DNA from: Candidatus Kerfeldbacteria bacterium
GTDB lineage: Bacteria; Patescibacteriota; Patescibacteriia; SBBC01; CAIJZX01
Assembly (NCBI GenBank): GCA_963731735.1
Contig: CAVSWO010000002.1
Span: 270,106-334,105, forward strand
Reading direction: 5' to 3'
DNA length: 64,000 bases
The notes beneath the pieces are model-generated. The model saw nothing but the letters and a program-made list of their open reading frames with translations, did not search any database and was not told the origin of the DNA. Position numbers and translations under genes: made by a program. This document shows, one piece after another, positions 4,428-28,880 of this stretch. Position 1 is the stretch's first letter. Each line of letters begins with the position of its first letter.

Positions 4428-4436
4428 ATATGCACA

Positions 4437-4789: not shown

Positions 4790-4801
4790 AAGAATAAAGT
4801 T

Positions 4802-4877: not shown

Positions 4878-4910
4878 AAGTGAGGAACAATGTTCCTTTG
4901 CGTCGTAAAA

Positions 4911-5117
4911 CTATATCAGTTTAAAGAGCCTCGCTCCCAAGTCGCCAAAAAAATTATGATTTAAGTCGTAGAAATACAATCCGACTAATATTCCAGCAAT
5001 TACAAGAGTAAAAGCAAAAACAGTCAGGAGATCCTTTTTGATACCAAAATTTTGTTGTTCCATAAGCTTCATCAGTGTACAGAAAAACCTAAAAAAATCA
5101 ATTATTGTCATTGACAT
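4911..5117 (-). CDS. small hydrophobic hypothetical protein (68 aa)
   Basis: ORF with one predicted TM segment in an AT-rich spacer. There is no homology signal. Confidence 0.3.
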   Translation of the reverse strand: MSMTIIDFFRFFCTLMKLMEQQNFGIKKDLLTVFAFTLVIAGILVGLYFYDLNHNFFGDLGARLFKLI

Positions 5118-5181
5118 TTTCCCTTATTTCTGCTATAATTATTTTAGCGTAAAACAAATAACAACTTTTATATAGGCATGT

Positions 5182-9105: not shown

Positions 9106-9134
9106 TTGACAATTGGGGTCTGTTTTCGTATACT
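9106..9134 (+). promoter_or_regulatory. sigma70-like promoter TTGACA-17-TATACT for infB
   Basis: A consensus -35 and a -10 with 17-bp spacing. The ATG at 9146 is only 12 nt downstream of the -10, giving a very short leader. Confidence 0.55.
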
Positions 9135-9145
9135 CTCGACGTTCT

Positions 9146-10954
9146 ATGAGTCCCGAAGCTATCAAAATTCCATCCGCACTGAGTGTCCGCGACTTCGCGG
9201 CCAAGCTTGGTATTCCAGTTACGACGGTCACCGCTGAACTGATTCGTAACGGCATCATGAAGTCGTTGAATGAGGAAATTGATTTTGATACGGCACAGAT
9301 TATCGCCGAAGACCTCGGAAAAAATGTGGCGCTGGACGAGCAGGTGGCGGACGAGAGCGGCACGATGTCCGTCAACGATTATTTGAAAGATGACACGGCC
9401 AACGCCACAATTGAACGACCGCCGGTGGTGGTCGTGATGGGTCACGTCGACCACGGGAAAACGTCGCTGCTGGATGCGATTCGCAAGACCAGCGTCACCG
9501 AAGATGAAGCGGGCGGTATTACGCAGCATATCGGCGCCTACCAAGTTACTGAGCAAGATCGACTCATCACCTTCGTTGATACGCCCGGCCATGAAGCCTT
9601 CACGCAAATGCGCGCCCGCGGCGCGAAAATCGCCGACGTGGCGATTTTAGTCGTGGCTGCCGATGACGGCGTCAAGCCTCAAACCAAAGAAGCCTTACAG
9701 ATTATTCACCAGACCGGTATTCCGTACCTGATCGCCATCACCAAGACTGATAAGGATGAGGCCCAACCGGATCGCGTCAAGAAAGAATTGGCGGAAAATC
9801 AGGTTCAGATTGAGGAATTCGGCGGCAAAACGCCGGTGGTTGCCGTTTCCGCGAAAACGCAAGCCGGCATTCATGAATTGCTTGAATCAATTATCCTGTT
9901 GTCTGATATCAACCGGGAAGCCCTGCTGGTGAATCCGGATCGATCCGCCATCGGTACTATTATTGAATCGCACGTCGACCCAAAACAAGGGCCGGTCGCG
10001 TCCGTGCTTGTCCAGTCCGGTACGCTGCATGTCGGTGACGAAGTGATTGTCGGCCAAGTCTACGGAAAAATCCGTTCGCTCAAAACCGATCGCGGGACTT
10101 CGACAAAGTCTGCTCCGCCTTCGATGCCGGTCCAAATTCTTGGGCTCAAGGCCGCGCCGCAAGTTGGTGATGTCCTGCGCGTCTCGGCGGCCGACGTCAA
10201 GGAACTCAAGAAGAAAAGTAAGTCACGCCAAATGAGCCACCACTTACAGTCAGTGGTCGGCCAACGGGCGGTGGCCACGAAGAAAAAAACTACTGATGAC
10301 GGCCAGGAAGAAACGCCGGAAATTAAGAAGCACCTGATAATTCTGAAGACCGATACGGTTGGTTCGGCCGAAGCCATCATTGAATCACTCAAAAAAATTC
10401 AACACCCGGAAGTGTCGGTTGAAATCATGCAGCGCGGTCTTGGGATCGTAACGGAATCCGATGTCCTCCGAGCCGAGGGCGCCAAGGCCACCATTTACGC
10501 CTTCCATGTTCCGATTTCTCCCAAAGCCGATCACTTGGCCCGCAGTAAGAATTTGACCATCAAGCCGTTCACGGTTATCTACGACTTATTGGATGACATT
10601 AAGCAGGCTTTGAACACCTTGTTACCGCCGGTCACAGTCCAAACCGAAATTGGCCGATTGCAGGTCCTGGCCATTTTCCGGAATGAAAATACTTTTCAGG
10701 TGGTGGGCGGTAAGGTTACGAGCGGGGAAATTCGTTTGCAATCCAACGTCCAAATCCTTCGGAAAGGACAACCCGTCAGCACCGGCAGAATTACGCAACT
10801 GCAGCAGAACAAGCAGAACGCGCAAACGGTCAGCCAGGGCAACGAGTGCGGGATGAAAATTGAAGGTGACCCGGTCATCCAGGTTGGCGATGAAGTCGTG
10901 GCCAGCGTCAGTCAAACACACGAACGCACAATAGACGACCCTGTCAGTGAGTGA
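9146..10954 (+). CDS. infB: translation initiation factor IF-2
   Basis: G-domain motifs [17 protein letters not shown] and TKTD, plus IF-2 C-terminal domains. It is compact and lacks a long N-terminal extension. Confidence 0.9.
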
Positions 10955-11297
10955 ACGGCTCGAAAAACTGAACAGTTTGGTCCAACGCGAAGTGGCGGAA
11001 ATTCTCCGACGCGAACTTGAGTTTGATCGCGATACAATGGTAACGGTCGCCCGAGCGGCCGTGGCGACCGACGCCGAAAGCGCCAAGGTCTGGATTTCGG
11101 TCTTGCCCAGCGATGCCGGAGAGGCGGCCCTGGCTAAAATAAACGGACATATCGGCCAGATCCAGAGCCTGCTCAACCGCCGACTGGTAATGAAATTTGT
11201 GCCAAAACTGACTTTTTTCCTCGATCATCAACAAACTAAGGCCGAGCACGTTAGCCAAGTTCTGGATCAACTAACTGACGAAGATCTCGGGAATTAA
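10947..11297 (+). CDS. rbfA: ribosome-binding factor A
   Basis: RbfA KH-like fold sequence (RLEKLNSLVQREVAEIL...MVTVARAAVATDAESAKVWIS). infB-rbfA synteny. Confidence 0.85.
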   Translation: MSERLEKLNSLVQREVAEILRRELEFDRDTMVTVARAAVATDAESAKVWISVLPSDAGEAALAKINGHIGQIQSLLNRRLVMKFVPKLTFFLDHQQTKAEHVSQVLDQLTDEDLGN

Positions 11298-11304: not shown

Positions 11305-12126
11305 TTACAGCGGACTCCGAATGCTTTGGAGTTTCGGATTCGTCACTCGTGTGTACCGCTGGGTAGTCCGAATATTGTTATGTCCGAGCAGAACCTGCAC
11401 ATAGCGGATATCCACGCCGTTTTCGAGCAGGTGCGTCGCAAAGCTGTGTCGCAAGCTATGGAACGTGGCCGGTTTTTTGATATCCGCTTTGGCCAAGGCA
11501 TGTTCAAAAACTTTCTGGGCGGTTCGGGTCGTGAGCCTTCCACCCCAATCGCTGTGAAAAATAAAGTCTCCCTTATCTTTGCCGGAGACAAAACGCTTGA
11601 GCGCATCAATAAATTTATCAGGTAAAACACTGATCCGATCTTTTCGCCCTTTCGCCTGTTTCAGATGAATCGTTTTTTCGGCAAAATCCAGGTCTTGGAC
11701 TTTGAGGTTCACGACTTCGCTCACTCGTAATCCCGCGCCGTAGGCCAAGGCCAGGAGTAATTGGTGCTTCTGATTCTTGGTCTCGTCAAGCATTCGTCCA
11801 ATCTCTTCGCGCGATAAAACTATCGGCAGGCGCTGGCCACGCTTGGCGGTCTTTATTTCAAGCCGTGCCTCGTCCCGCACCACCTGGCGATAATAAAACT
11901 TTAGAGCACTTAAGCACAGATTCCGTGTTTGTGCCGACACGCCTTGCTGTTCCAACGACGCTAAAAATCGCCTGATCGTTTCCTCATTGATTGTGTCCGC
12001 ACGATTAGACACAAAAACGAAATACTCTCTTAAGAAGTGTAGGTAGATTTTCACGGTGCGGGGACTGTAGTTGCGTATACGAAGTTCGATCCCAGCCCGC
12101 TCCAATTCTGTTGTAATATTAAACAA
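11305..12126 (-). CDS. integron-integrase-like tyrosine recombinase (short, 273 aa)
   Basis: Catalytic residues are in LRVSE, HSLRHSFATHLL, LLGH and RYTRV. The N-terminal SAM-like domain is IntI-like (YSPRTVKIYLHFLREYFVF...FYYRQVV) and the C-terminal IRSPL is IntI-like. The gene is divergently placed next to the attI and cassette array. It lacks the roughly 35-aa IntI additional domain. Confidence 0.8.
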   Translation of the reverse strand: MFNITTELERAGIELRIRNYSPRTVKIYLHFLREYFVFVSNRADTINEETIRRFLASLEQQGVSAQTRNLCLSALKFYYRQVVRDEARLEIKTAKRGQRLPIVLSREEIGRMLDETKNQKHQLLLALAYGAGLRVSEVVNLKVQDLDFAEKTIHLKQAKGRKDRISVLPDKFIDALKRFVSGKDKGDFIFHSDWGGRLTTRTAQKVFEHALAKADIKKPATFHSLRHSFATHLLENGVDIRYVQVLLGHNNIRTTQRYTRVTNPKLQSIRSPL

Positions 12127-12200
12127 AACGGTGGCCCCTTTCCGCCACCAGCACTGTCTAATCCCAAACTAGCAAAAAGTCTTAAAATGAGCAATACTGG

Positions 12201-12241
12201 GGTTATTATCCGAACCAAGTTCGCATAATAACCAGTTGTAC
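12201..12241 (+). other. attI recombination site: palindrome GGTTATTATCCGAAC-CAA-GTTCGCATAATAACC followed by crossover core GTTGTAC
   Basis: The core GTTGTAC (12235-12241) is the exact complement of the first attC inverse core GTACAAC (12781-12787). It lies 75-115 bp upstream of the intI start. The same 52-bp sequence recurs at 52136-52187. Confidence 0.7.
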
Positions 12242-12334
12242 GAAAATTTGCCTCCCTATGTTGTAAGAAAAGCTAGGTCCGAGAGTATCGCTACTCCCGG
12301 ACCCATGTTATCGGAGATGATTCCTTGGAGCGCC

Positions 12335-12638
12335 CTAGACGAGAAGCTCGCTGGCCTGATCGCGGATCGTGTCCTCGATCTGACCCTTGAACATGCCCGC
12401 CAGCCAGGGGAGCTTGCCCGTGACAGTGACTTCTCGGTCACTCACGGTCAGCTGCCCCGAGACATCGAAGCCCATGGTACTGAAGCTGAACCTGGCACCG
12501 TTGTCATGCCAGCGCCTCCTCGAGGTTGCTGACCTGGTCACCATGGTCACGCTTGACGTTCGTCAGGAGCGTGCGAACTCGCTTGAGCGCTTCGGGCTTG
12601 CCGAGCCGATGAGGAATGGACACGCGAATGTCTGGCAT
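12335..12638 (-). pseudogene. cassette 1: PHA-granule-region/polyhydroxyalkanoic acid system family protein, frameshifted, inverted relative to the array
   Basis: MPDIRVSIPHRLGKPEALKRVRTLLTNVKRDHGDQVSNLEEA then a 1-nt insertion (gcgCtggcat) shifts the frame into WHDNGARFSFSTMGFDVSGQLTV...LPWLAGMFKGQIEDTIRDQASELLV. There is a GGAGG RBS 7 nt upstream. Family recognition is from memory of PF09650-like sequences. Confidence 0.55.
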
Positions 12639-12780
12639 CGCTCTACCTCCGAAAGGAGCAGTCAATTCACCATGAATTGACAAAGCAGGATAGCATAAGG
12701 ATTAGTTCGTGTCAAGAATGTCGGGTAACATGGAGACAACCACGCTTTTCTTTTACATATGCGGCGGTCGGCAAATCATC

Positions 12781-12913
12781 GTACAACAGCGCGTAGGCGG
12801 CTCGGGTTTCTGTGGCCGCCCGAAGGCCATCCCCTAGAAACCGCTCGCCTAAGTTCGCCGGTGATGGTACGATTGTATCACCGACGAACTTCGCCTACGC
12901 GCAATCGTTGTGT
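12781..12913 (+). repeat. attC site a (133 bp; R'' GTACAAC ... R' GTTGTGT)
   Basis: Imperfect palindrome with AAC-AGCGCGTAGGCG ... CGCCTACGCGCAATC-GTT. The central region holds two internal hairpins. Confidence 0.8.
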
Positions 12914-12965
12914 GAAATTTTTCCCGGGGCTACGGTATAGAATGATGCACTAAAGACCACCGTCA

Positions 12966-13922
12966 ATGAATACAATTTTAGACAGCGTTAAAGCGGTTAT
13001 TGTTAAATCAAAACACGTTAGAATAAATAAGGAGAGCCTCAAAGAGTTTTGTTTACAATTCAATGTAAACAAGAGCGTTCACTGGATGAATGGGTCTCCT
13101 TATAATTACTCAAAACTAGATGATCTGAAAAAACTGAATTATCTTTTTGTTTTCAATTCTATCAATTTCTGCTATTGGGGTACTCCAAAATGGACTGTAG
13201 AAAACAAGGGGAACAAATACGATGGTGCCTGGGCAATGATGGCGTCTTTAGGTAAAGCAATAGATGATAACATTCCCATTTTAGATGCGAAGTATCTTTC
13301 TACTTTAAGCGGAGACATTTTATCGAGAATTTTGCAGGGAAATGTTGCAATTCCCTTGTTCAAAGAGCGTCTACAAATACTGCATGAAAATGGAAATATA
13401 CTTGCAGAAAAATATAACGGGCAATTTTCGAAGTTATTACAAAAATCAAATCAAGACGCTTTACATATTTTAGAAATAATTACCACTGAATTCCCATCAT
13501 TTGATGATAGTGCGGAGTATGAAGGCCAAAAAGTGATGTTTCACAAGAGAGCTCAATTATTAATTGCTGATGTCTATAGAGCTTTTAACGGCAATGGATT
13601 CGGTGATATAAAGAACATTAACAATCTTTCTGCATTTGCCGATTACAAAATTCCACAAATCCTTAGAAAGCTAGGAGTTTTAGAATATACACCAGAATTA
13701 TCAGCAAAAATTGATAACAAGGTTCAAATTTCCCAAGGTAGCGATGAAGAGATTGAAATTCGCTCAAACATGATTTGGGCAGTTGAATTGATGAAAGAAG
13801 AATTGAAAACAAAAACTCCAAATATTACATCAATGGAAATTGATTCATATCTTTGGCTGTTAGGGCAAGACAAATCTCCTGATGATAAACCCTATCATTT
13901 AACTGAAACTATCTTTTATTAG
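12966..13922 (+). CDS. cassette 2: DUF2419/queuosine-salvage (Qng1-like) family protein
   Basis: 318 aa and AT-rich. It carries a HKRAQLLIADV motif and overall resembles the Q-salvage family from memory. It is bounded by attC a and attC b. Confidence 0.45.
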   Translation: MNTILDSVKAVIVKSKHVRINKESLKEFCLQFNVNKSVHWMNGSPYNYSKLDDLKKLNYLFVFNSINFCYWGTPKWTVENKGNKYDGAWAMMASLGKAIDDNIPILDAKYLSTLSGDILSRILQGNVAIPLFKERLQILHENGNILAEKYNGQFSKLLQKSNQDALHILEIITTEFPSFDDSAEYEGQKVMFHKRAQLLIADVYRAFNGNGFGDIKNINNLSAFADYKIPQILRKLGVLEYTPELSAKIDNKVQISQGSDEEIEIRSNMIWAVELMKEELKTKTPNITSMEIDSYLWLLGQDKSPDDKPYHLTETIFY

Positions 13923-13941
13923 TGGCCCCGAGAAAAACTAC

Positions 13942-13998
13942 ACACAACAGCGCGTATACGATATGCTTCGCACGATCGTATACGCACAAACGTTAGGC
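13942..13998 (+). repeat. attC site b (minimal, 57 bp; R'' ACACAAC ... R' GTTAGGC)
   Basis: ACACAAC-AGCGCG-TATACGAT-[12-nt loop]-ATCGTATAC-GCACAAAC-GTTAGGC. R'' is the reverse complement of the preceding R' GTTGTGT. Confidence 0.8.
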
Positions 13999-14030
13999 GC
14001 AACTGCCTATTAATTACTAAGGAAAAAACT

Positions 14031-14267
14031 ATGGCTAAACAATACGTTTGTACTAATTGTGGTTATACAGGAGCTCCAAAAAAGATTACCAAGGGAAGCA
14101 TTCTAATCGAGATTATCCTTTGGTTATTTTTGATAGTACCTGGGCTTATCTATTCTATCTGGAGATTAACCACAAAGTACGATGCTTGTCCCAAGTGCAA
14201 GAATCCAACAATGATCCCGGTTGATTCCCCAAAGGGACAAAAGTTAGTCGAGGAACACAAACAATAG
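14031..14267 (+). CDS. cassette 3: small membrane zinc-ribbon protein (CxxC...CxxC, 78 aa)
   Basis: CTNCGY and CPKC pairs flank a TM helix. It lies between attC b and attC c. Confidence 0.5.
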   Translation: MAKQYVCTNCGYTGAPKKITKGSILIEIILWLFLIVPGLIYSIWRLTTKYDACPKCKNPTMIPVDSPKGQKLVEEHKQ

Positions 14268-14276
14268 GCAGCAGCG

Positions 14277-14612
14277 CCTAACAGCGCGTATCTGAAATTA
14301 CCACCATGGAACTAAGTGATTTCATCAAACAGAGTGTTAGGGAAGTTATGAAAGGAATGTCGGAAGCCCAAACTAACACTCATAAGTTTGGGATTAACAA
14401 TGACAACGGAAATGGCATTGAGTTTGATATTGCCGTGACATCCGAGACATCAAAAACTGGTGGCGGCAAGGTATCTATATTAAAAGTAGTCGACATTGAT
14501 GGGAACATTAAGAAATCTGAGTCTCGGATTCATAGAATAAAATTCACACTTATCCCAAGAGGAAAAAGAAACCCAACAAGTTAATAACTTCAGATACGCG
14601 CAAACGTTGTAT
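14277..14612 (+). repeat. attC site c, 336 bp, enclosing a complete ORF (R'' GCCTAAC ... R' GTTGTAT)
   Basis: The L arms GTATCTGAA (14289-14297) and TTCAGATAC (14589-14597) are exact complements. They flank the ORF 14306-14584. R'' GCCTAAC is the reverse complement of attC b R' GTTAGGC. Confidence 0.7.
14306..14584 (+). CDS. hypothetical protein (92 aa) encoded inside the attC c palindrome
   Basis: AT-rich ORF that fills the loop between the paired L arms. The stop TAA abuts the 3' arm. Confidence 0.45.
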   Translation: MELSDFIKQSVREVMKGMSEAQTNTHKFGINNDNGNGIEFDIAVTSETSKTGGGKVSILKVVDIDGNIKKSESRIHRIKFTLIPRGKRNPTS

Positions 14613-14683
14613 GAAATATACTTTTCCTTTCCGCCTGACGGCTATCGCTTTTCCTACATGAGCAAATTTGATTTCGCCTAGAC

Positions 14684-15667
14684 ATGTCCATGCTACCAAA
14701 ATTTATACTATTCGGAACTGGAAATCCTGAAATCGAGGCGTCGATTCAGCCTGTACTTGGCCTTCGAGGATGGTCAAGTCTAAGTTCGAACGAAAAAGAA
14801 ATTGTTCGCCAACAGCTTGAAAATAGTGGTTGGCTTGGTGAATATTCTAGAGAAATTTTTCACACCATAGAACACCTAAATCATAAGTATTTACGGCTAC
14901 TGCCAGGTAAGCATCTTCACGCGATTGCGCCTAAAATTGATTATGGTCGTGGGTTTGGAAGCGGTGATGAATACGAAAGGATAAAAGCTGCTCTGATTGA
15001 TTTCCAACACATATTAGTACAAGAAAGGTCCGAGTCAGTTGTGTACTATATGCTTTCTTATTTTGCGAGTTTACACATTGACAATAATTACTATCAATGG
15101 GCGAAGCAAGCAAAAACCGCGAAAGAAAGGCGAGACAATCTGCAGAAAGCATTTGAAAAATTTGGCAGGCTTGCAAATTGTTTAAATCACATATTTGAAC
15201 AATTCTCAGTGAATGTAACCCTGACGAGAAATGGTCTTGTGCCAAGACAAGACGAAAAGATTACTGAGCTAATTTATGTGCCAACTTTGCAGATTCTTGC
15301 CGATCCCAAATGGGAAAATGTTAGTAAAGATTTAGGGGACATGTTTTCAGCCTATCGGGACGAGAATTACCCTGAAACAATTACTGCTGCCCATAGAGCA
15401 GTGCAACGCTTTTTGCAAATATTAGTTGGTGAAGAGGGTAAAAATGCTAAGGGAGAAGTTGGCAAATTGTTTAGTAAGGCAAAGACGGAAGGACTAATCC
15501 CAGTCAACCGATTTACCGAACCAATTATTTCAACGATCCAGGGGTTCATCGTTTCAGAGCGTTCAACAAAAAGCACAGCGAAACCGACGGTGTCTGATGC
15601 TGGGCCCACGGACGCACTGCTCGTCATGAATGTTGTAATGGTGCTTTTACAACATTGTTTGCAGTAA
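14684..15667 (+). CDS. cassette 5: hypothetical protein (327 aa), possible Abi-like/defence-type protein
   Basis: AT-rich ORF with no firm motif. The C-terminus has a weak resemblance to Abi_C-type abortive infection proteins. Confidence 0.4.
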   Translation: MSMLPKFILFGTGNPEIEASIQPVLGLRGWSSLSSNEKEIVRQQLENSGWLGEYSREIFHTIEHLNHKYLRLLPGKHLHAIAPKIDYGRGFGSGDEYERIKAALIDFQHILVQERSESVVYYMLSYFASLHIDNNYYQWAKQAKTAKERRDNLQKAFEKFGRLANCLNHIFEQFSVNVTLTRNGLVPRQDEKITELIYVPTLQILADPKWENVSKDLGDMFSAYRDENYPETITAAHRAVQRFLQILVGEEGKNAKGEVGKLFSKAKTEGLIPVNRFTEPIISTIQGFIVSERSTKSTAKPTVSDAGPTDALLVMNVVMVLLQHCLQ

Positions 15668-15754
15668 GAATCGCAGTTGATTATCAATATCAAACATCAA
15701 ATTTGCTCATTCAAAAAAGCGTCTGATACAATCAGGAAAGGAAAAGTATAAATC

Positions 15755-16503
15755 ATACAACAGCGGATATGAGACGGAGGAAATCGGGTTTGGTTCTCTC
15801 CAACCAAAACAAAGAACCCCTGTCGCGTTCCGGAGAGGAACTGGGGTTCGTGCGGCGACACGGGGTCGCAATAAGGAGCACGGGTCTCAGTCGCTAGACC
15901 TGCACGGTCTGCAACGTGAGCCGGTGCCGCATGATCACCGCGCGGCGAGAAGGCGGGTCGGTGACACAGAAGATCACCTGGCCGTCTTCCTCGATCACGC
16001 TCTCCAGCTCCATGCCGTTGAGAGGCGCCGGGTAAGACACCCCCGCAGAGATCTGGTAGAGAATGCCAGCCGCCTTCGGCCGCTCGGGGAACGGGAACTT
16101 CCGTTCACCAACTTGCAGGAAGCGGCACTCGAACGTGACCGACCCGGAGTAGTCGGTGACCGACGGGTCATTGATGCCCTTAGGCTTGGTCACGTCGAAG
16201 GTGTGATGCTCTTCCACCACCTTCACGTCGACAGGAAGAGCGGCCCAGTTCTTGAGCGTCTCGATGATCGGGTTCATTTGGTACCTCCCCTGAGTGTGTG
16301 GTCGCGTCAGAAAGCCGTGGTCACACACCAAGAGAAGTACTCCAGTAGAATGAACAACGGAAAAGCATAGCACTGTTACGCCCAAATGTCAATACCAAAA
16401 CCAAACCCGATTTCCTCCGTCCAAATTGCTGCTTCGCCTCGGCGGTGGTAATATTGTACCGCCGGAACGAAGCAGCAACTTCTCATATCCGCAAACGTTG
16501 TCC
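15755..16503 (+). repeat. attC site h, 749 bp, enclosing a reverse-oriented ORF (R'' ATACAAC ... R' GTTGTCC)
   Basis: Arms GGATATGAG/CTCATATCC plus a second perfect 23-bp arm pair ACGGAGGAAATCGGGTTTGGTT / AACCAAACCCGATTTCCTCCGTC flank 15800-16400. R'' is the complement of attC c R' GTTGTAT. Confidence 0.7.
15894..16277 (-). CDS. hypothetical protein (about 127 aa, high GC) inside attC h, opposite orientation
   Basis: ORF starting MNPIIETLKNW with a GGGGAGG RBS 8 nt upstream. There is no recognised domain. Confidence 0.45.
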   Translation of the reverse strand: MNPIIETLKNWAALPVDVKVVEEHHTFDVTKPKGINDPSVTDYSGSVTFECRFLQVGERKFPFPERPKAAGILYQISAGVSYPAPLNGMELESVIEEDGQVIFCVTDPPSRRAVIMRHRLTLQTVQV

Positions 16504-16590
16504 GACATACATTTTTATCCCCTTTCGTTCATTTCCCGCGCGGTTCTTTTGGGAGTATAATTAACTTGTTAACAATAACTAGGATTTTTT

Positions 16591-17352
16591 ATGCATAAAC
16601 GACAAGGTATTATTTGGGCTCCGGTCCTCATCATAATTGCAACGGTTGGGGTTGCTGGAATAGCGACTTACTTTTTAATACGTGCTGGCAATACCAATCC
16701 GTCCGAAAATGGCAACACGAATGTTGCGGTGGTAAATCAGGCGAACAACAACGCTACCGCAAACCTCAACACCAACGACGCTACAAACACGAACCAGGTA
16801 GTGAATAACAATGCCAGCGCGAACACGAATACAACAGTGAATACGAACACGGTGAGCAACACCAATGCCGCAATCGATCCCTATACCGGATGGGAAACAT
16901 TATTGAATGAGCCTTACGACGTGCAGTTCAGGTACCCAAACACCTACTTTGTCTCAAGTAATCATTACGGGGTCACGGACCCAGCCAAAGCCGAAGCGTT
17001 CTTTTTCCGAAAAACATCCACCAACTACAATGGTGTACCGACGCTGGATGTTTCGGCCAACCTTACGTTACCTGCTGGCCAGACCCTCAAACAGCTAGCT
17101 GAATCCATTTATAACAGTAATAAGGATAAAGACTACGTTACAACGGATCTGAGTGAAGTAACGTATGATGGAAATGCTGGTTACGCATTCGGGCTCAAAA
17201 CAGGCTATTCCGATCCGAATGGATATCAAGCACTCGATTCAGTTGGCGGACGAGTCGTAATTCTTCAGCACAACAGCAAAATCTTTCGGTTCTTGCAAAC
17301 AGGCGCTGATGCAACACTTGAAAGCATTCTGAACAGCATAGATTTTCAATAG
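16591..17352 (+). CDS. cassette 7: secreted/membrane-anchored protein with an N/T-rich linker (253 aa)
   Basis: N-terminal TM (IIWAPVLIIIATVGVAGIATYFLI), a low-complexity N/T-rich region, then a globular domain. It is a paralog of 19154-19798. Confidence 0.6.
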   Translation: MHKRQGIIWAPVLIIIATVGVAGIATYFLIRAGNTNPSENGNTNVAVVNQANNNATANLNTNDATNTNQVVNNNASANTNTTVNTNTVSNTNAAIDPYTGWETLLNEPYDVQFRYPNTYFVSSNHYGVTDPAKAEAFFFRKTSTNYNGVPTLDVSANLTLPAGQTLKQLAESIYNSNKDKDYVTTDLSEVTYDGNAGYAFGLKTGYSDPNGYQALDSVGGRVVILQHNSKIFRFLQTGADATLESILNSIDFQ

Positions 17353-17403
17353 CTATTGAGAGCCGCGCGGGAAATTCTCTTTAAGAGATAAAAATGTACG
17401 ATC

Positions 17404-17511
17404 GGACAACAGCGCGCATACGCCATCCTTCTCCCGCTTTGGCGCTACGGCTCCGCCGATATTCTAGCGCCACGCTCATTTCGGACGGCGTATGACGCGC
17501 AAACGTTGTCC
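17404..17511 (+). repeat. attC site d (108 bp; R'' GGACAAC ... R' GTTGTCC)
   Basis: GGACAAC-AGCGCG-CATACGCC ... GGCGTATGACGCGCAAAC-GTTGTCC. R'' complements attC h R'. Confidence 0.8.
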
Positions 17512-17583
17512 GACATATATTTTTTGGAAATTTCCCGCGCGGCTCTTTGGGAGTATAATGGGAGTGTTTAATTATCACGGAAT

Positions 17584-18234
17584 ATGACAACACGCAAACG
17601 ACTGTTTTTGATCACTATCGGTACCATCTTGCTTGTTATTGTCGTTTGGGTAGCGCTTCCGTTCAATTGGGCAATCATGACGACAAGCAAGGTTACCGCA
17701 CCGGCCGGGGGCGATTTTACGCTATCTATGGTGACTCATGCGGATCAGAAAGAGTCGGACTGCATGCGAACAAAAAGCATCCGAATTGCCACTGATTCAG
17801 TGGAGGGTCAAATAATTAAAGTTTACAACACCAATTGGGATGTAATAGTTCAAGACTTGATACTTCCTACATTTGGGTCTCCAATCGAACGAATAACCCA
17901 GGTCAAACAAGAAATGTCGCAGAGAGCCGTCGGGATCATATCATACGACTCTTGGAATTATATTTCATCGATTTGGGACGGAGACACGCCCCAGCGTCTC
18001 GGCGATAGCTGGCTTGAGCCAATTACTGGTTTTACATGTTGGGTTGGCCAAGCGTCAGATCTCGCGTGGCTAAAACTTCCAAGCCGCCTAGACTCGTATT
18101 GGGAAGTATTTCCGTCTACCCCTCCCGGCACATACAAACTAACCGTGACGGATCCTTTTGGAAAACCTCATGCTCTTTCACTCACGGTCACGAAGCCAAT
18201 TTCTGATAATGACTACAAATGGTCAATAAAATAG
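17584..18234 (+). CDS. cassette 8: membrane-anchored hypothetical protein (216 aa)
   Basis: N-terminal TM followed by a globular region. There is no motif. Confidence 0.5.
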   Translation: MTTRKRLFLITIGTILLVIVVWVALPFNWAIMTTSKVTAPAGGDFTLSMVTHADQKESDCMRTKSIRIATDSVEGQIIKVYNTNWDVIVQDLILPTFGSPIERITQVKQEMSQRAVGIISYDSWNYISSIWDGDTPQRLGDSWLEPITGFTCWVGQASDLAWLKLPSRLDSYWEVFPSTPPGTYKLTVTDPFGKPHALSLTVTKPISDNDYKWSIK

Positions 18235-18261
18235 TTGCGCAGGAAGTTTTTTTGAACTACC

Positions 18262-18328
18262 ATATACGGTCGGACAACAGCGCGTATGCGATATACTACG
18301 TACAATCGCATACGCGCAAACGTTGTAC
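18262..18328 (+). repeat. attC site e (minimal, 67 bp; R'' GGACAAC ... R' GTTGTAC)
   Basis: GGACAAC-AGCGCG-TATGCGAT-[12-nt loop]-ATCGCATAC-GCGCAAAC-GTTGTAC. Confidence 0.8.
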
Positions 18329-18345
18329 GAAATGCTTTAACTAAT

Positions 18346-18915
18346 ATGAAAACAACAATTATTGTAATGTACGGTCCGCCTGGTGTTGGCAAGTTTACAA
18401 TTGGCAAACAGCTTTCCAAGAAAACAGGTTTTCGTTTCTTCAATGGACATAGACTTGCCGATGTCGTACATAGTATTTTCGAATTTGGAACGAAAGAATT
18501 TATTGAAACAACAAATTTTCTTTGGCTAAATCTTTTTTCAAAACTAGTAAAAAGCCAACCTCGGGGCCTAATTATTAGTTTTGTCTATGGTGTGCAAACC
18601 CTCGAAGGCAAAAAGGATGATCTGTTTTGCAAAAAATTTATAGCTGTAGCCAAAAGAAACGATGCCAAGATCCACTTCATTAAACTCACCTGTTCTGATG
18701 ACAGGCTCTACAGACGTGTTCAAAATAAGTCAAGAAGAAGATATGGGAAATTGACATCGGCAAGTCTTCTGAAAAAAATCCGAAATAACTACAAGGTTGA
18801 TGAAGAAATTCCTTTTGTTAAAAGTATAGAGATTGATACAACTACTTATACGCCTAAACAAACGGCGGATCGAATTATTGCCAAATTAAACCTTGCCTCT
18901 TTAAAACGTCGTTAA
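18346..18915 (+). CDS. cassette 9: P-loop NTPase / small kinase-like protein
   Basis: Walker A GPPGVGKFT near the N-terminus and an adenylate/zeta-toxin-like kinase size of about 190 aa. The start was taken after the attC e R' site. Confidence 0.55.
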   Translation: MKTTIIVMYGPPGVGKFTIGKQLSKKTGFRFFNGHRLADVVHSIFEFGTKEFIETTNFLWLNLFSKLVKSQPRGLIISFVYGVQTLEGKKDDLFCKKFIAVAKRNDAKIHFIKLTCSDDRLYRRVQNKSRRRYGKLTSASLLKKIRNNYKVDEEIPFVKSIEIDTTTYTPKQTADRIIAKLNLASLKRR

Positions 18916-18922
18916 AGCACTC

Positions 18923-19061
18923 CGTACAACAGCGCGTAACCGACGCGGTTTCTGGCGACCGGCGGAGCCGTTCGCTTCCGAAACCGCTACATTTGCTGGT
19001 GTTGTCCGCTAAAGCGGAGTATTCTAACACCAGCAACGTCGGTTACGCGCAAACGTTGTCC
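18923..19061 (+). repeat. attC site f (139 bp; R'' GTACAAC ... R' GTTGTCC)
   Basis: A conserved frame. The central module CGGTTTCTGG...CGAAACCGCT plus TTGCTGGTGTT...AACACCAGCAA is shared with attC g. Confidence 0.8.
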
Positions 19062-19153
19062 GACATACATATTTATCTTATTGAATTGGTTTCCCGCGCG
19101 GCTCCTTCCAGAGTATAATAAGATTGTTTAAAATACTTAATTAAGTATATTTT

Positions 19154-19798
19154 ATGAAATACCGACAAGGTATCGTTTGGGCACCGGTGCTCATCATTAT
19201 CGGTGCAGTTGTGGTAGCAGGTTTTACAACCTTTTTCTTGATTCAGGCCAACCAATCCGACAATGAAAACGTGAATGTTGCGCTGGCAAATCAGGCGAAT
19301 AGCAATCTCAGCGTTAACACAAATACGAATGTTTCGACTGTCCCAACTGGATGGAAGGTGTTTACAAATGATTATGCAAAGTATTCTTTTCAGTACCCAA
19401 CAACACTTATAATCAGTGATTGCAGTAATAAATTAGGAAGTTACGTATTAGCTCCAGGGGGATCGTGCGAAAATGAAACATTTGGGCCAGGTTTTTCAGT
19501 TTTACTTCATTCAGAGCCAACATACAATGAAGATGAGACATACGAAGAAATTAAAAAGTTAATTACAAATCCGCAAACAAGCTCCGTGCCAATTGATGGT
19601 ATGCTTGGTCGTCGATTGCAAGGTGTTCAAAAAATAGAGGACCCAGTTTTTCCGGACCAAAAAGAGAAATACTCCGACTACGTTTTTGTTCAAGCCAGGG
19701 GCAACTTCTATACCATTGCAAGTGTTTCTTTGACATCGGAACCATTTCGGTATACTGACTTTGAGAATTTCCTTGCGACCTTTAAATTCACGAATTAG
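19154..19798 (+). CDS. cassette 10: secreted protein, paralog of the cassette 7 protein
   Basis: MKYRQGIVWAPVLIIIGAVVVAGFTTFFLIQAN parallels MHKRQGIIWAPVLIIIATVGVAGIATYFLIRAG. It shares the same N-rich linker. Confidence 0.6.
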   Translation: MKYRQGIVWAPVLIIIGAVVVAGFTTFFLIQANQSDNENVNVALANQANSNLSVNTNTNVSTVPTGWKVFTNDYAKYSFQYPTTLIISDCSNKLGSYVLAPGGSCENETFGPGFSVLLHSEPTYNEDETYEEIKKLITNPQTSSVPIDGMLGRRLQGVQKIEDPVFPDQKEKYSDYVFVQARGNFYTIASVSLTSEPFRYTDFENFLATFKFTN

Positions 19799-19905
19799 CT
19801 GTAAAGATAATTATCTAGTTTTTCGAAGATGGATTTACTTCAACTCTCTGTTTAGCTGCGAGTGAAATTCTCTTTTGAAGATAAAATGTACGATCGGACA
19901 ACAGC

Positions 19906-20067
19906 GCGTAGAGGAAATCTTTGGTTTTAGCAAGATTTCTGGTAATATCAATGCATTAGTAGCTCTTTTTGAGCCTATCGGCTTACCGCAAATCGGCTGT
20001 CCGCCCCGTGGTGAGCGAGTGTACCACAGTGCGGCCAGCCGACTTCCTCTACGCGCAAACGTTAGCT
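19906..20067 (+). repeat. attC site i (162 bp; R'' GGACAAC ... R' GTTAGCT)
   Basis: L arms GTAGAGGAA/TTCCTCTAC. The central module is nearly identical to that of attC j. Confidence 0.8.
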
Positions 20068-20183
20068 GACATATTCCTTTTCTTTTCCAGCTAACGCCGG
20101 TGCGGGTAAAAAATCTTTCAAATTTCTCTTTTAAGGTCAACGCTTCTTGCAATAATCTGGTTTATTCAATAACATAATAATAT

Positions 20184-20624
20184 ATGTCAATCGAGCACGG
20201 CGGCCCATCCCCTGAGGAGATGGGGTTAAGTCAAGAGACAACTGAATCAAAACTTCCACCCGAAGCATTGGATGCGATGACAGATTATTGGGAGGAACAA
20301 CAAACAAAGTTTATAGGACAGATGGCCGACGGATCCGGCAGAAATTTTGATGTCGATATATCGCGGACAAATGCCTATTTAGAAAAGATTGACCAGGCAG
20401 ATTATTTTACACCCGCCGAAGTTAAAAAGACCGTCGATGGCAAAGAAGTAACTTCTCCGGAACGTTCAGTATTTGATTTTTTTAAGAAAAAGCTCGCGGG
20501 CTTAGAATACGCCATTGAACAGGGAGATGACCTTAAGACTATTCAGGAATACGAGAAACAGGCAAAGCAGATGAGAATGGCAGTTGAGGCGCTGGAGAAA
20601 ATCCGACCCAAAGACAGTGAGTAG
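20184..20624 (+). CDS. cassette 11a: hypothetical acidic protein (146 aa)
   Basis: ORF with a plausible composition. No motif was recognised. Confidence 0.45.
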   Translation: MSIEHGGPSPEEMGLSQETTESKLPPEALDAMTDYWEEQQTKFIGQMADGSGRNFDVDISRTNAYLEKIDQADYFTPAEVKKTVDGKEVTSPERSVFDFFKKKLAGLEYAIEQGDDLKTIQEYEKQAKQMRMAVEALEKIRPKDSE

Positions 20625-20835
20625 CTTTATAGCAAAATGGCCGCCAGTGATAACTATTGCCTCTTTTGTTGGCTTGCTTATTCTGATGGCTGGCATCTTT
20701 GCTTGGGCAACAGGTACCAATTTGGGGTCGGTCACGAACGCAGTGGTTACATTGCTATCAATTGTTGGTCTCATAGTTCTTTTGGCGCTAACATTTGTTT
20801 CAAAAAACCCTAAAAAGCCAGACCAGAAGCAGTAG
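20617..20835 (+). CDS. cassette 11b: small two-TM membrane protein (start uncertain, GTG/TTG)
   Basis: Two hydrophobic helices (ITIASFVGLLILMAGIFAWA and AVVTLLSIVGLIVLLALTFV) and a lysine-rich tail. It overlaps the stop of 11a. Confidence 0.35.
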   Translation: MSSFIAKWPPVITIASFVGLLILMAGIFAWATGTNLGSVTNAVVTLLSIVGLIVLLALTFVSKNPKKPDQKQ

Positions 20836-20897
20836 AAAAATTCGAAAGTTTTTTACACGCCTTCTCTTAACAGAGAAGAAAAGAAAGGGAATACGAT

Positions 20898-21070
20898 CAG
20901 CTAACAGCGCGTAGAGGAAATATTTAGTTTCAGCAAGATTTCTGATAATATCAATATACTCGAAACTCTTTTGGAGCCTAATGACTTGCCACAAATCGGC
21001 TGTCCGCCCGGTGGTGAGCGAGTGTACCACAGTGCGGTCAGCCGACTTCCTCTACGCGCGAACGTTGTAC
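20898..21070 (+). repeat. attC site j (173 bp; R'' AGCTAAC ... R' GTTGTAC)
   Basis: R'' is the exact complement of attC i R' GTTAGCT. It shares a roughly 120-nt central module with attC i. Confidence 0.8.
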
Positions 21071-21093
21071 GAAATATAGTCATCCCCCCTACT

Positions 21094-21717
21094 TTGACCA
21101 ATTCAACAAAAATAAAGGCAATAGTATTTGATTTTGGCGATGTGATTTGCTTTTGGGATGATCAGATCTGGAGCGATGAGGAGTTGCGATTACGTGGAAT
21201 CAATGGAGAGGAGCTGAGGAACCTGATGTATGAATATATGCGTCATGGTGGCGAGGGAAAATATCATAGCTTCCTTGACTACTATGATACTCATCAGCAC
21301 GGTTCTAACATCGAAAGAAAAGTCATTGCTGGCTTGTACGAGGACCGGGAACAAACAGGTAAACTTGATCCCAAGATGGTCAATCTCATTACAAAACTAA
21401 AGTCTCGATACAAAATTGGGTTGCTTTCAAACTATACCAAAGGACTTGAAGACTTCTTGATAAACCGATTCAAGATTCACCACCTTTTTGACGCTGTAGT
21501 CAGCTCATACACGATTCGGATTAGAAAGCCCGCGATTGATGCGTATCATTATGTCGCAAAAGAATTATCAGAGCAGGTTGAGCATTGTCTTTTCGTCGAT
21601 GATAAGCAAAAAAACGTTGACGTAGCACTTGAGGCAGGCATGGAGGCAATCCTCTTTTCAGGTTTCGATGACCTTGTGAAAGAAATGGAGCAACAATTTG
21701 GTATCAGCATTTCCTAA
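21094..21717 (+). CDS. cassette 12: HAD-superfamily hydrolase
   Basis: Motif I FDFGDV, motif II LSNYTKG, a conserved K in IRKP and motif IV FVDDKQKNVD. There is no ATG after the attC, so a TTG start is assumed. Confidence 0.6.
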   Translation: MTNSTKIKAIVFDFGDVICFWDDQIWSDEELRLRGINGEELRNLMYEYMRHGGEGKYHSFLDYYDTHQHGSNIERKVIAGLYEDREQTGKLDPKMVNLITKLKSRYKIGLLSNYTKGLEDFLINRFKIHHLFDAVVSSYTIRIRKPAIDAYHYVAKELSEQVEHCLFVDDKQKNVDVALEAGMEAILFSGFDDLVKEMEQQFGISIS

Positions 21718-21759
21718 CTACAGCGCTTTCAGGAGGAGTTCGGGGGGATGACTAAACTC

Positions 21760-21902
21760 CGTACAACAGCGCGTAACCGCCGCGGTTTCTGGCGACCTGG
21801 CAAAGCCGCTCGCTTTCGAAACCGCTACATTTGCTGGTGTTTTCCGCTGGCGCGGAGTAGTGATAACACCAGCAACGTCGTATACGCGCAAACGTTAGGT
21901 GA
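21760..21902 (+). repeat. attC site g (143 bp; R'' GTACAAC ... R' GTTAGGT)
   Basis: R'' complements attC j R' GTTGTAC. The central module is homologous to that of attC f. Confidence 0.8.
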
Positions 21903-22017
21903 AATTTTCGAAACGAGATTTTTTTATTCGGAGGTTTTGAATTTGGCACTAAAAAGAGGGGCCCGCGGATACAGTATCCTTGGGCCCCGAATTTCGACTG
22001 ACTCACAGAGATTGCAG

Positions 22018-22329
22018 TTACTTCATGGGGTATTCACGAAGCAGCTGCTGATGAAGGAGATATGCAAGCTGCTGACGCCCCATCGATCCTGATGCTCTGG
22101 GCACTGCGAGGACGGGATGGTTGGAGCCACGTTTCAGCTTTGGATGCTCCAGCCCCCAGTACAACCCCAGAGCCGCGGGCCCCTTGACCTGCTTGATCCA
22201 CTTGTCGAGATGATGCTCGGCAACCCTCCGTGCTACCTCATCCGGTACCACAGGTTCTTCCCAGGTCTCACAGCACCGTTCCACGATGTCGTCGATGAGA
22301 AGCGGTCGAACCTTTTTCTCGTCTATCAT
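22018..22329 (-). CDS. cassette 13: hypothetical protein (103 aa), reverse orientation
   Basis: Only a protein-like ORF between attC g and the terminal attC remnant. Confidence 0.3.
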   Translation of the reverse strand: MIDEKKVRPLLIDDIVERCCETWEEPVVPDEVARRVAEHHLDKWIKQVKGPAALGLYWGLEHPKLKRGSNHPVLAVPRASGSMGRQQLAYLLHQQLLREYPMK

Positions 22330-22480
22330 GGCGACACCTCCCAGAAGTCCGTAGCGAAAAGAATGAACTGGTACAGATCTGTCAGAACAAAGAATAATTA
22401 GTCTATTTTCACAAATCTGTCAAGGGGAGCATGAACAAATTCAAAACCCTTTTACTTATAGGGCTCGTTTCGAAAAAATC

Positions 22481-22500
22481 ACCTAACAGCGCGTATCTGG
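22481..22500 (+). repeat. terminal attC remnant (5' half only: ACCTAAC-AGCGCG-TATCTGG)
   Basis: R'' ACCTAAC is the exact complement of attC g R' GTTAGGT. No matching 3' arm was found before nrnA. Confidence 0.6.
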
Positions 22501-22608: not shown

Positions 22609-23640
22609 ATGTTCACCTCTAATGGGATTATGCATCCGTATCATCATCACGCCCTCCAATTCCAGCGTCTGCTCCAGGGTCGTCAGCGCATTCTCGTCAC
22701 GATTACCAAGGATCCCGATGGAGACAGCATCGGTTCGATGTTGGCCATGTGCCATGCCTTGCAGCAACTCGGTAAAACCTGCACTTGTTTTTCACCGGAC
22801 CGGATCCCGGCCATGTTTAGTTACTTGCTGGGTCCCCATCCGGTCATGCGCGAACTGCCGGATCACGTCCACGACTATGATGCCGTTATCATTTTTGATA
22901 CCGGAGATATAAAACGGACGCCGCTGGTGGCGTCGCTGGTCAAGCGTCAGCCGGAAAAAACCCTGGTGATGAATATTGATCACCACCCGACGGTAACCGA
23001 TTGGCAGGGTCAGCCGGCGGTTGATCAGAACATTATCGACACCCAAGCCGGTGCCACGACCGAAATGCTGTTTCATATGTTTGACGCGTTGCGGATCCCG
23101 ATCAATCGCCATGCCGCCACCTGTCTCCTAACCGGTATCCTGACCGACACCGGGCACTTCACCAACCAAGGTACGAGTATACATTCCTTGGAAGTTGCGG
23201 CTCGGTTGATGGCCAAGGGTGCGCAGCACCACGTCATCACTCAAGCCACCATGCGCAACAAAAATCTCGGCACGTTAAAACTTTGGGGCCGCGCCTTGTC
23301 GCGGTTATGGCTAAACCCGCGGACCGGCATTGTGACTACCGCCCTGACCTTAAAAGATTTTTCGGAATGCGGCGTTGACTACAAAGCCGGTACCGGCATC
23401 TCGAATTTTTTGAACGGCCTAGATGAAGGAAAAATGGCGCTGGTCCTGCACGAAGAACCGGGCGGAAAAATTAAGGGCAGTCTGCGGACTACGCATCCCG
23501 ACATGAACGCGGCCGTGTTTGCCGAGCAATTCGGCGGCGGGGGACATCCAAAGGCGGCCGGTTTTGTAGTCCGCGGATCACTGGTTGAAACAAGCCATGG
23601 GTGGATGATTCAGCCTCTAGCCAAATCAGGAAACTCGTGA
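22609..23640 (+). CDS. nrnA: DHH-DHHA1 family nanoRNase/pAp phosphatase (NrnA-like)
   Basis: N-terminal DHH region (ITKDPDGDSIGS, IIFDTGD, NIDHHP), a C-terminal DHHA1 region and the GGGGH motif. Synteny is with rbfA once the integron is subtracted. Confidence 0.75.
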   Translation: MFTSNGIMHPYHHHALQFQRLLQGRQRILVTITKDPDGDSIGSMLAMCHALQQLGKTCTCFSPDRIPAMFSYLLGPHPVMRELPDHVHDYDAVIIFDTGDIKRTPLVASLVKRQPEKTLVMNIDHHPTVTDWQGQPAVDQNIIDTQAGATTEMLFHMFDALRIPINRHAATCLLTGILTDTGHFTNQGTSIHSLEVAARLMAKGAQHHVITQATMRNKNLGTLKLWGRALSRLWLNPRTGIVTTALTLKDFSECGVDYKAGTGISNFLNGLDEGKMALVLHEEPGGKIKGSLRTTHPDMNAAVFAEQFGGGGHPKAAGFVVRGSLVETSHGWMIQPLAKSGNS

Positions 23641-28219: not shown

Positions 28220-28589
28220 GCCTGGGCAGCGCCGACCTGCCACTGGCAGCTCGGCGAACATTCGGACGGCGTTCCACTTGTCCTCACTTCTGCCCGTCTC
28301 GCTTCGCTCGACCCATTTCGCTAGCGGCCGCTAGCTCAAAACACCTCGTGGTGACCCGCGAAGGACTCGAACCTTCAACCCACTGCTTAAGAGGCAGTTG
28401 CTCTGCCTGGGCAGCGCCGACCTGCCACTGGCAGCTCGGCGAACATTCGGACGGCGTTCCACTTGTCCTCACTTCTGCCCGTCTCGCTTCGCTCGACCCA
28501 TTTCGCTAGCGGCCGCTAGCTCAAAACACCTCGTGGTGACCCGCGAAGGACTCGAACCTTCAACCCACTGCTTAAGAGGCAGTTGCTCT
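28220..28589. repeat. two tandem 185-bp repeat units (plus a degraded third copy at 28060-28219), each containing the 3' two-thirds of tRNA-Lys and a 16-bp perfect palindrome GCTAGCGGCCGCTAGC
   Basis: The sequence 28220-28404 is repeated at 28405-28589. Each unit carries tggtgacccgcgaaggactcgaaccttcaacccactgcttaagaggcagttgctct, which is tRNA-Lys from the CCA end through the D-stem. Confidence 0.75.
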
Positions 28590-28608
28590 ACCATTGAGCT
28601 AGCGGGCC
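28534..28608 (-). tRNA. tRNA-Lys (anticodon CTT)
   Basis: Cloverleaf with anticodon loop CTCTTAA, T-loop TTCGAGT and an encoded CCA. It lies at the end of the tandem repeat. Confidence 0.8.
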
Positions 28609-28631
28609 GCCAGCAAGTGTTTTGAATGATT

Positions 28632-28706
28632 TGGTGCCGCGGGTCAGAATCGAACTGACGACGCCAGCCTCTTCAGGGCTGCGCTCTACCATTGAGCTAC
28701 CGCGGC
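28632..28706 (-). tRNA. tRNA-Phe (anticodon GAA)
   Basis: Acceptor GCCGCGG/CCGCGGC, anticodon loop CTGAAGA, T-loop TTCGATT and CCA. Confidence 0.85.
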
Positions 28707-28756
28707 CTAAGCTTTGGGCTCCGCCAGCGTAGCGGAGTTTGATATTTTTTTCAAGT

Positions 28757-28845: not shown

Positions 28846-28880
28846 AATGCTTGGAAAGAATGGGCGGGATCCCGCTCCGG

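Follow-up and report, generated by a model that had tools for sequence, protein, structure and literature searches.

Is the array of small genes and palindromic repeats that lies between rbfA and nrnA in a patescibacterial chromosome an integron and, if so, of what kind? The stretch of DNA analysed here, which we call the window, comprises 64,000 nucleotides (64 kb) of a Candidatus Kerfeldbacteria contig (CAVSWO010000002.1). The element in question consists of a tyrosine recombinase gene, an adjacent recombination site (attI) and a one-way array of cassettes that end in attC-like sites. We read it as a chromosomal integron-like cassette platform of the Patescibacteria (Kerfeldbacteria-like), whose integrase would belong to an Xer-like clade without the I2 helix of integron integrases (IntI); working from the sequence, we give this reading a probability of roughly 0.72. 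The evidence comes from the anatomy of the locus, a scar at the cassette junctions, covariation in the stems of the sites and the polar linkage of sites to the recombinase across its family. Coordinates are positions in the window, and L-numbers (L001 and so on) denote related loci that carry a homologous recombinase.

Anatomy of the locus

The initial annotation placed a chromosomal array between rbfA and nrnA, and this position is confirmed. The left flank is rbfA (TIGR00082, 57.7 bits against a cutoff of 51.15), and the right flank is an nrnA-like gene (NF053633, 5.4e-23, under the cutoff of that model). Because both flanks are core genes, the element is chromosomal. IF-2 has a match of 100% identity on an 822,872-bp contig, and the relatives of this protein that bear a name belong to Candidatus Kerfeldbacteria (65% identity). 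The recombinase gene and rbfA are convergent, tail to tail. The features of the locus are as follows.

9113-10954: IF-2, upstream of rbfA
10947-11297, + strand: rbfA, left chromosomal flank
11305-12126, - strand: tyrosine recombinase of 273 aa, Xer-like, without the I2 insertion, putative cassette integrase (PF00589 and PF13495)
12129-12150, - strand: GC-rich hairpin directly before the start codon of the recombinase gene, in its 5' leader; flagged as terminator-like
12186-12246, + strand: attI, with a distal motif, an inverted repeat and a dif-like core
12236-12907, + strand: cassette 1, GC 0.558; reverse-strand ORFs (open reading frames) 12504-12683 and 12335-12550 (PHA_gran_rgn) with their own TTGACA promoter; attC 12781-12913
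12908-13992, + strand: cassette 2, queuosine-salvage protein 12966-13922 (PF10343, 1.8e-86); 57-bp attC 13942-13998, covariance model (CM) match 2.4e-12
13993-14606, + strand: cassette 3, 78-aa zinc-ribbon membrane ORF 14031-14267; giant attC 14276-14612
14607-16497, + strand: cassette 4, 327-aa ORF 14684-15667; giant attC 15755-16503
16498-17505, + strand: cassette 5, 253-aa N-rich membrane or secreted ORF, paralogue of cassette 8; attC 17404-17511
17506-18322, + strand: cassette 6, 216-aa ORF; 57-bp attC 18272-18328
18323-19055, + strand: cassette 7, AAA_18 P-loop kinase-like ORF (18286/18347-18915); attC 18924-19061
19056-20061, + strand: cassette 8, 214-aa ORF 19154-19798; attC 19896-20067
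20062-21064, + strand: cassette 9, ORFs of 146 aa and 58 aa; attC 20899-21070; 5' leader common to cassettes elsewhere
21065-21894, + strand: cassette 10, HAD hydrolase; attC 21761-21900; ends 21064-21089 and 21742-21767 complementary at 88% over 26 nt
21895-22500, + strand: last unit, reverse-strand 103-aa ORF 22018-22329 with its own TTGACA promoter; orphan left half-site at 22481
22609-23640, + strand: nrnA-like DHH phosphoesterase, right chromosomal flank

Ten complete sites lie on the + strand (12781-12913, 13942-13998, 14276-14612, 15755-16503, 17404-17511, 18272-18328, 18924-19061, 19896-20067, 20899-21070 and 21761-21900). Eight of them are ordinary (57-172 bp) and two are giant (337 and 749 bp), which, with one orphan half-site, replaces the earlier count of at least 12 palindromes plus two giant ones. 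Left ends read NNNNAAC-AGCGCG and right ends CGCGCAAAC-GTTNNNN, and most sites have no trailing T-tract. The half attC that had been noted at the end of the array corresponds to the orphan left half-site, ACCTAAC AGCGCGTATCTGG at 22481; a search of the whole window did not find its 3' half. An Rfam scan of the window at gathering thresholds returned tRNAs only, so no curated Rfam family covers the sites.

The cassettes had been described as AT-rich, and GC computed cassette by cassette agrees: the cassettes lie at 0.35-0.47 and the flanks at 0.52-0.55. Only the three reverse-oriented units depart from this, namely cassette 1 (0.558), the gene inside the giant site of cassette 4 and the last cassette. 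The cassette ORFs are ORFans, with no homologues in the related loci and almost no family matches.

The palindromic attI, said to end in GTTGTAC beside a divergent recombinase, is indeed there, with inverted repeat arms at 12201-12215 and 12219-12233 and GTTGTAC at 12235. The crossover falls between G12235 and T12236. The attI core reads AGTTCGCATAA (12218-12228), TAACCAG (12229-12235) and TTGTACGAAAA (12236-12246), and the whole of 12218-12246 has the form of a dif site, two inverted arms around a centre of 6-8 bp, here 7 bp. The left arm in the window matches the XerC arm of Erwinia dif, GGTTCGCATAA, at 10 of 11 positions, and in close relatives it is identical to that arm (the full Erwinia site is GGTTCGCATAA TGTATA TTATGTTAAAT; PMC2731167). 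Upstream of most homologous genes we find TTCG[CT]ATAATATACAA and, about 30 nt further, TTCGCATAA-[AT]AAC[CG]AG^TT[AG]NNNGAAAT, where ^ marks the crossover, here and below. Of 82 related contigs, 24 stop less than 300 bp beyond the 5' end of the recombinase gene, and six end 0-2 nt from the attI GTT, as expected of an assembly graph when a population carries differing first cassettes. A metagenome scan with an attI 20-mer found one attI followed by various first cassettes.

Cassette junctions and cassette ends

The most exact feature of the array is the relationship between neighbouring sites. As initially annotated, the 7-nt core that opens each site (R'') is the reverse complement of the core that closes the preceding one (R'). 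The rule is exact at 11/11 junctions, attI GTTGTAC included, and none of 200,000 permutations reached that score; R'' matches the R' of its own site in 1/10. The same rule was seen in other genomes, at 5/6 junctions in L064, in L014, L019, L054 and L046, and at many adjacent pairs.

The complementarity in fact extends over about 20 nt. The 5' end of a cassette, counted from GTT, is complementary to the stretch before its own AAC at 14-24 of 26 nt, 19.3 on average, where wrong pairings of cassette ends give 11.0 +/- 2.4 of 26 nt, and it contains a conserved 2-base mismatch (2x2) at positions 10-11. It is also present in L014, L019, L064, L054 and L055. Because its own ends are complementary, a cassette excised as a circle would have a fully paired site, a hairpin whose basal stem is about 20 bp long. 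Such end complementarity is explained neither by repetitive extragenic palindromic (REP)-like repeats nor by purely double-stranded recombination.

Structure of the sites

A position matrix of 60 sites gave the consensus ACATC-NNN-YAA^C-A-GCG-nn-TAT-n-CG for the 5' arm and, as reverse complement, AT(T/G)TC-NNN-YAA^C-GTTT-GCG-nn-TA-nnn-GA for the 3' arm. Both R arms and both L arms fit the attI pattern TTC-NNN-YAA, and the spacing between R and L arms is about 6-7 nt on one strand and 3 nt more on the other. Across 54 aligned sites, in an alignment that was fitted to the model and therefore favours the structure somewhat, 92% of cells are paired, against 76% when shuffled and 24-40% with the partner slid, and 11/12 L-stem pairs show compensatory changes.

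The sites agree with the description of attC used by IntegronFinder, an imperfect palindrome with ..AAC / GTT.. cores that is conserved in structure rather than in sequence. In detail they depart from it. GTTRRRY cores had been claimed throughout, and only 2/10 R' fit that pattern. Folding of the bottom strand, which had been proposed as a check together with a search for extrahelical bases, gave a divided answer: the bottom strand forms the stabler fold in 11/12 sites (DNA parameters, run without shuffles), and instead of an extrahelical G and T pair it has a 3-nt bulge. On that strand the helix is continuous, with a TT(T/C) bulge closed by a G.T pair, and on the top strand there is a 1x4 internal loop. 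A single extra base is confined to one site subfamily. Canonical attC sites have RYYYAAC/GTTRRRY cores, an unpaired centre of about 5-6 nt per side, extrahelical G and T bases about 6 bp apart and lengths of about 57-141 bp (PMC7439510). The sites described here instead have dif-like 9-nt arms, a 1x4 spacer or TT(T/C) bulge, and a basal stem that runs about 20 nt beyond the core with the conserved 2x2 mismatch. They measure 57-172 bp, apart from the two of 337 and 749 bp, and some of the hairpin loops hold whole genes.

The giant attC of 337 bp (14276-14612) has a perfect 13-bp L stem, holds a Trypco2 ORF (14306-14584, PF19631) in its loop and was matched by the second-round CM with an E-value of 0.0016. 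That of 749 bp (15755-16503) has stems of 12 bp and 23 bp (15773-15795 with 16399-16421) and encloses a GC-rich gene for 128 aa (15894-16280) on the reverse strand with its own promoter. Hairpins that enclose a whole gene between the L'' and L' arms were also observed at L044 (1088-1795) and L083 (9098-9564 and 2933-3326).

Linkage of sites and recombinase across the family

A loose scan for AAC-stem-GTT proved too noisy on AT-rich loci and was replaced by covariance models, with which we searched 80 loci carrying homologous recombinases (945 kb, 44-71% identity). The first CM, built from 11 ordinary window sites alone, gave 48 matches at a nominal E < 0.05, all of them on the strand opposite to the recombinase and upstream of its start. 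A second-round CM gave 77 matches in 37 loci, all of them in upstream, antisense sequence, which makes up 14.5% of the search space. At least one site is present in 27/32 loci having at least 2 kb of upstream sequence. In the window itself, CM matches form two clusters on one strand.

The chromosomal context of the module varies among the closest relatives (70-73% identity). The array had been called sedentary and lineage-specific, which is only half right: both the recombinase clade and this type of attC are Patescibacteria-wide, and the location of the platform differs even in the closest relatives.

A comparison with related genomes had also been proposed in the search for an empty rbfA-nrnA site. 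L069 (1113-3168) is the only related locus with both genes; they are adjacent there, and the recombinase and array lie just past nrnA, which suggests a local rearrangement of the platform. An adjacent pair was thus found, but at 51% identity L069 is too distant to serve as an empty-site control.

Proposed mechanism

How would such a platform capture cassettes? We propose that the recombinase binds the 9-nt arms TTC-NNN-YAA. attI would act as an ordinary double-stranded dif-like core, composed of the left arm, the 7-bp centre and a right arm from the first cassette. The cassette site would fold as a single strand, probably the bottom one, and the fold would rebuild a two-arm core consisting of the R arm, a centre with the TT(T/C) bulge and G.T pair, the L arm and a variable stem-loop. 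One strand would be exchanged at AA^C (G^TT on the top strand), and replication would then resolve the product, as in integrons and in XerCD-driven CTX phage integration. A circular cassette would carry a junction of the form ..CGCAAACG^TTNNNN, both parts from the same cassette, and the outcome would be cassettes stacked at attI in one orientation. The bulge may take over the role of the extrahelical bases and I2, namely the choice of strand and the block of a second exchange.

Several points weigh against this account. The I2 helix has been reported as necessary for cassette capture and single-strand recombination by IntI (PMC7790495). In the context of the array, the R box pairs through AAC/GTT only, and the 337- and 749-bp sites could fold only if very long stretches were single-stranded. 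Furthermore, the CMs are self-built and were trained on these very sites, which makes their E-values rough.

The recombinase and alternative explanations

The recombinase combines Phage_int_SAM_4 with Phage_integrase (PF00589, 1.1e-46), its catalytic residue motifs are intact and its C-terminus is SIRSPL. As IntegronFinder looks for, a PF00589 recombinase adjoins the sites, with its gene 109 bp from the attI crossover. The XerA-type NCBIfam model NF040815 scores it at 226.4 bits against a cutoff of 220, which places it among the simple Xer-type recombinases. It has more than 7,900 homologues, in a very large and well-conserved family; among the 120 listed, all are 266-304 aa long and the named ones come from Patescibacteria. 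Homologues at about 52-62% identity (L048, L057; P0102) are also labelled Margulisbacteria and Candidatus Hydromicrobium, and the clade may extend past Patescibacteria; no site was seen at L048. The 64-kb window contains no additional integrase of the IntI type and no paralogue of the recombinase.

The best surviving alternative, a serious one that we nevertheless regard as improbable, is that the recombinase is a housekeeping dimer resolvase, a single Xer of the XerA, XerS or XerH kind with its dif beside the gene. The cassettes would then be hitch-hikers resembling integrative mobile elements exploiting Xer (IMEX), which, as CTX phage does, use a hairpin that mimics dif, and the array would be a by-product. 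The module does resemble XerA/dif, XerS/difSL and XerH/difH: a recombinase of about 270 aa passes the XerA model, and its site lies beside the gene, as in xerS/difSL, xerH/difH and some xerA/dif modules (PMC2731167, PMC5357621). The attI core is dif-shaped, with two inverted arms around a centre in the 6-8-bp range, and its left arm differs little from the XerC arm of dif in the window and equals that of Erwinia in close relatives. Here, however, the cassette supplies the right arm, which varies; the centre is 7 bp, and there is no terminus-type skew switch. A change of GC skew from + to - at the module was found in 0/22 loci covered on either side of it (20-kb neighbourhoods), the sign being the same on both sides in 15/22 and at every strongly skewed locus, and there is no switch in the window. 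A family so large and well conserved, with no site at 5/32 loci having at least 2 kb upstream, would suit a housekeeping function, but the chromosomal context of the module differs among the closest relatives and most genomes have a cassette array.

The likeness to IMEX is in the single-stranded hairpin with two dif-like arms and an imperfect centre, in tandem accumulation, and in the proposed exchange of one strand followed by replication. In place of phages or islands, however, we find gene cassettes of 0.6-1.9 kb without replication or transfer genes. One recombinase takes the place of XerC plus XerD, and a single family of sites has a uniform orientation. Cassettes of this kind in 27/32 loci, and a second cluster of sites 31 kb away, are integron-like and unlike occasional IMEX capture. 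A related group is the 'Cand' subgroup of simple tyrosine recombinases, which are Xer-related, specific to candidate phyla and thought to replace Xer (PMC8138268), a point in favour of a resolvase. The present protein and its homologues from Patescibacteria are likened to that subgroup by description only; that report gave only a possible Xer replacement, whereas here the clade is tied to cassette arrays. The recombinase may have a dual role, as Xer and in cassette recombination.

Far less probable still is the reading from which the work began, a canonical integron with an IntI-family integrase and ordinary attC sites. The anatomy and the junction scar are those of an integron. A divergent tyrosine recombinase lies by a double-stranded attI, followed by a one-way array of small, mostly single-ORF, low-GC ORFans. 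An imperfect palindrome that has AAC...GTT cores, a crossover at G^TT and a variable terminal structure closes each cassette, and the R'' core belongs to the cassette while the R' core belongs to the next one. Reverse cassettes have their own promoters, and a second cluster without an integrase lies in the same genome. The protein had been called IntI-like, and its SAM-like N-terminal domain (Phage_int_SAM_4), its divergent orientation and its C-terminus, of which ..SPL is common to VchIntIA, stand. Its closest solved structure is VchIntIA (2a3v; Foldseek E-value 2.5e-16), ahead of archaeal XerA, and it scores 219 bits with the integron-integrase model TIGR02249 despite a missing segment.

The identification as IntI does not stand. 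The score of 219 bits is below the TIGR02249 cutoff of 265 and comes from two separate stretches, while PRK15417, an IntI model, gives 150 against a cutoff of 435; by comparison, NF040815 is passed. In the alignment to VchIntIA, residues 16-191 of the recombinase correspond to chain residues 14-193 and residues 202-273 to 246-317. VchIntIA residues 194-245 are left without a counterpart, about 52 IntI residues being replaced by about 10. An AlphaFold2 model (predicted local distance difference test score, 82.7) has no helix at residues 181-199, and the Foldseek alignment to 2a3v spans 312-315 columns for 273 residues. What the recombinase lacks is the additional domain near patch III (intI_Cterm / I2 helix) by which IntegronFinder defines IntI (PMC4889954) and which has been described as present in no other protein (PMC7790495); in IntI the insertion, regarded as necessary, binds the extrahelical bases (PMC7790495). 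The uniform length of the listed homologues, all 266-304 aa, and the architecture of the sites, unlike canonical attC (PMC7439510), point the same way, and the host genome of about 0.8 Mb falls in a size class reported without integrons (PMC4889954). By the defining domain test the recombinase is not an IntI, and this absence contradicts a canonical integron. The element works like an integron, yet it fails the tests for the integrase domain and for canonical attC structure.

The idea that the sites are intergenic repeats of a REP-like or terminator-like kind, unrelated to recombination and beside a recombinase by coincidence, can be dismissed: they are GC-rich intergenic stem-loops after ORFs, and some are flagged as terminator-like, but most lack T-tracts, window matches are not dispersed but lie in two clusters on one strand, 77/77 matches in 37 other genomes are upstream of and antisense to the recombinase, and REP elements explain neither the junction scar nor the 20-nt end complementarity.

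Variation among cassettes and a second cluster of sites

The three reverse-oriented units have a host-like GC of 0.51-0.56 and perfect, well-spaced TTGACA -35 elements on the - strand at 12715-12687, 16392-16364 and 22423-22394. In this they are reminiscent of large chromosomal integrons and their self-expressed reverse toxin-antitoxin cassettes, but the sole family match in them was PHA_gran_rgn and none was to a toxin-antitoxin family.

A leader of about 85 nt that is conserved among cassettes, GTTAGCTGACATATTCCTTTTCTTTTCC-(GGGCTAnCGCCC hairpin)-..AAAAATCTTTCAAATTTCT, is found at 20061-20150 in the window and just past attI or an attC in L004, L014, L018, L021, L029, L037 and L074. These are distant genomes, in which it often belongs to the first cassette after attI and the downstream ORFs are unrelated. 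Part of the leader forms the extended basal stem, and the remainder could be a promoter or small RNA. Hairpins comparable to the one ahead of the recombinase start codon (12129-12150) were observed in L083, L001, L004, L014 and L015, and this leader hairpin may control integrase expression.

Arrays elsewhere vary in content. L083 (1-9842 of a 979,532-bp contig; 70% identity) has an array with DUF3850, two D12 methyltransferases, RE_AlwI, SduA_C, T5orf172, an EcoRI-type methylase and GmrSD/HNH, and is a stockpile of defence genes. At L064 (897-1960), cassettes of 104 nt, apparently without ORFs, are repeated between 187-bp sites and look like tandem duplications of one cassette. L001, L004, L010, L013, L014 and others come from third-party-annotated bins titled 'uncultured Gammaproteobacteria' or 'Pseudomonadales' that have a Patescibacteria-type recombinase and array; these labels look wrong.

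The second cluster of the window lies 31 kb from the main array.

53306-55401, + strand: second cluster of sites, no recombinase; main-family sites at 53306-53405, 54838-54954 and 55329-55401, site of another subtype at 54318-54417

The subtype site has the form ATAAC-AAGGGATATACG...CGTATATCCCTAAC-GTTAT. The cluster includes a frameshifted methyltransferase cassette (53468-53827 and 54028-54234), and the junction rule is broken in 2/3 cases. It looks like a decaying cluster of attC sites lacking an integron integrase (CALIN). A gene assigned by eye to ribosomal protein L32 (56013-56210) lies just downstream. Elsewhere in the window 11 tRNA genes, every one on the minus strand, form three clusters (4546-4877, 28360-30060 and 35600-35820); the block at 4001-6000, which contains the first of these clusters, has a low GC of 0.43.

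Implications

In our incomplete coverage of the literature, we found no account of integrons in the candidate phyla radiation (CPR), Patescibacteria or Saccharibacteria, or of integron integrases without I2. A tentative extension of the favoured reading, of a cassette platform with an Xer-like integrase, is that it represents an undescribed integron lineage, widespread in Patescibacteria, in which I2 was never acquired or was lost and in which attI and the folded attC are still dif-like. If this is true, cassette capture via folded single-stranded sites needs no I2, and the lineage would either be a living intermediate of the transition from Xer/dif to integrons or have run in parallel to it independently. 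Genes nested in the recombination hairpin and a basal stem some 20 bp long would be extra features of its own.

The current view is that acquisition of I2 enabled IntI to act on folded single-stranded attC sites, and here, in at least 37 related genomes, arrays that show every hallmark of an active integron at the sequence level are consistently found beside a recombinase that is Xer-like and has no I2. If the functional link is true, the Xer/dif origin of integrons would become testable with natural proteins and sites. Software that needs an IntI-specific domain would miss the integrase and call such arrays CALINs at best. The dif-like arms suggest a simple, sequence-defined hairpin recombination system, which would be a possible tool. 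For the organisms themselves, it would mean that ultra-small, host-dependent bacteria, thought to be free of integrons, own a cassette system, which in one relative (L083) stores restriction-modification and defence genes.

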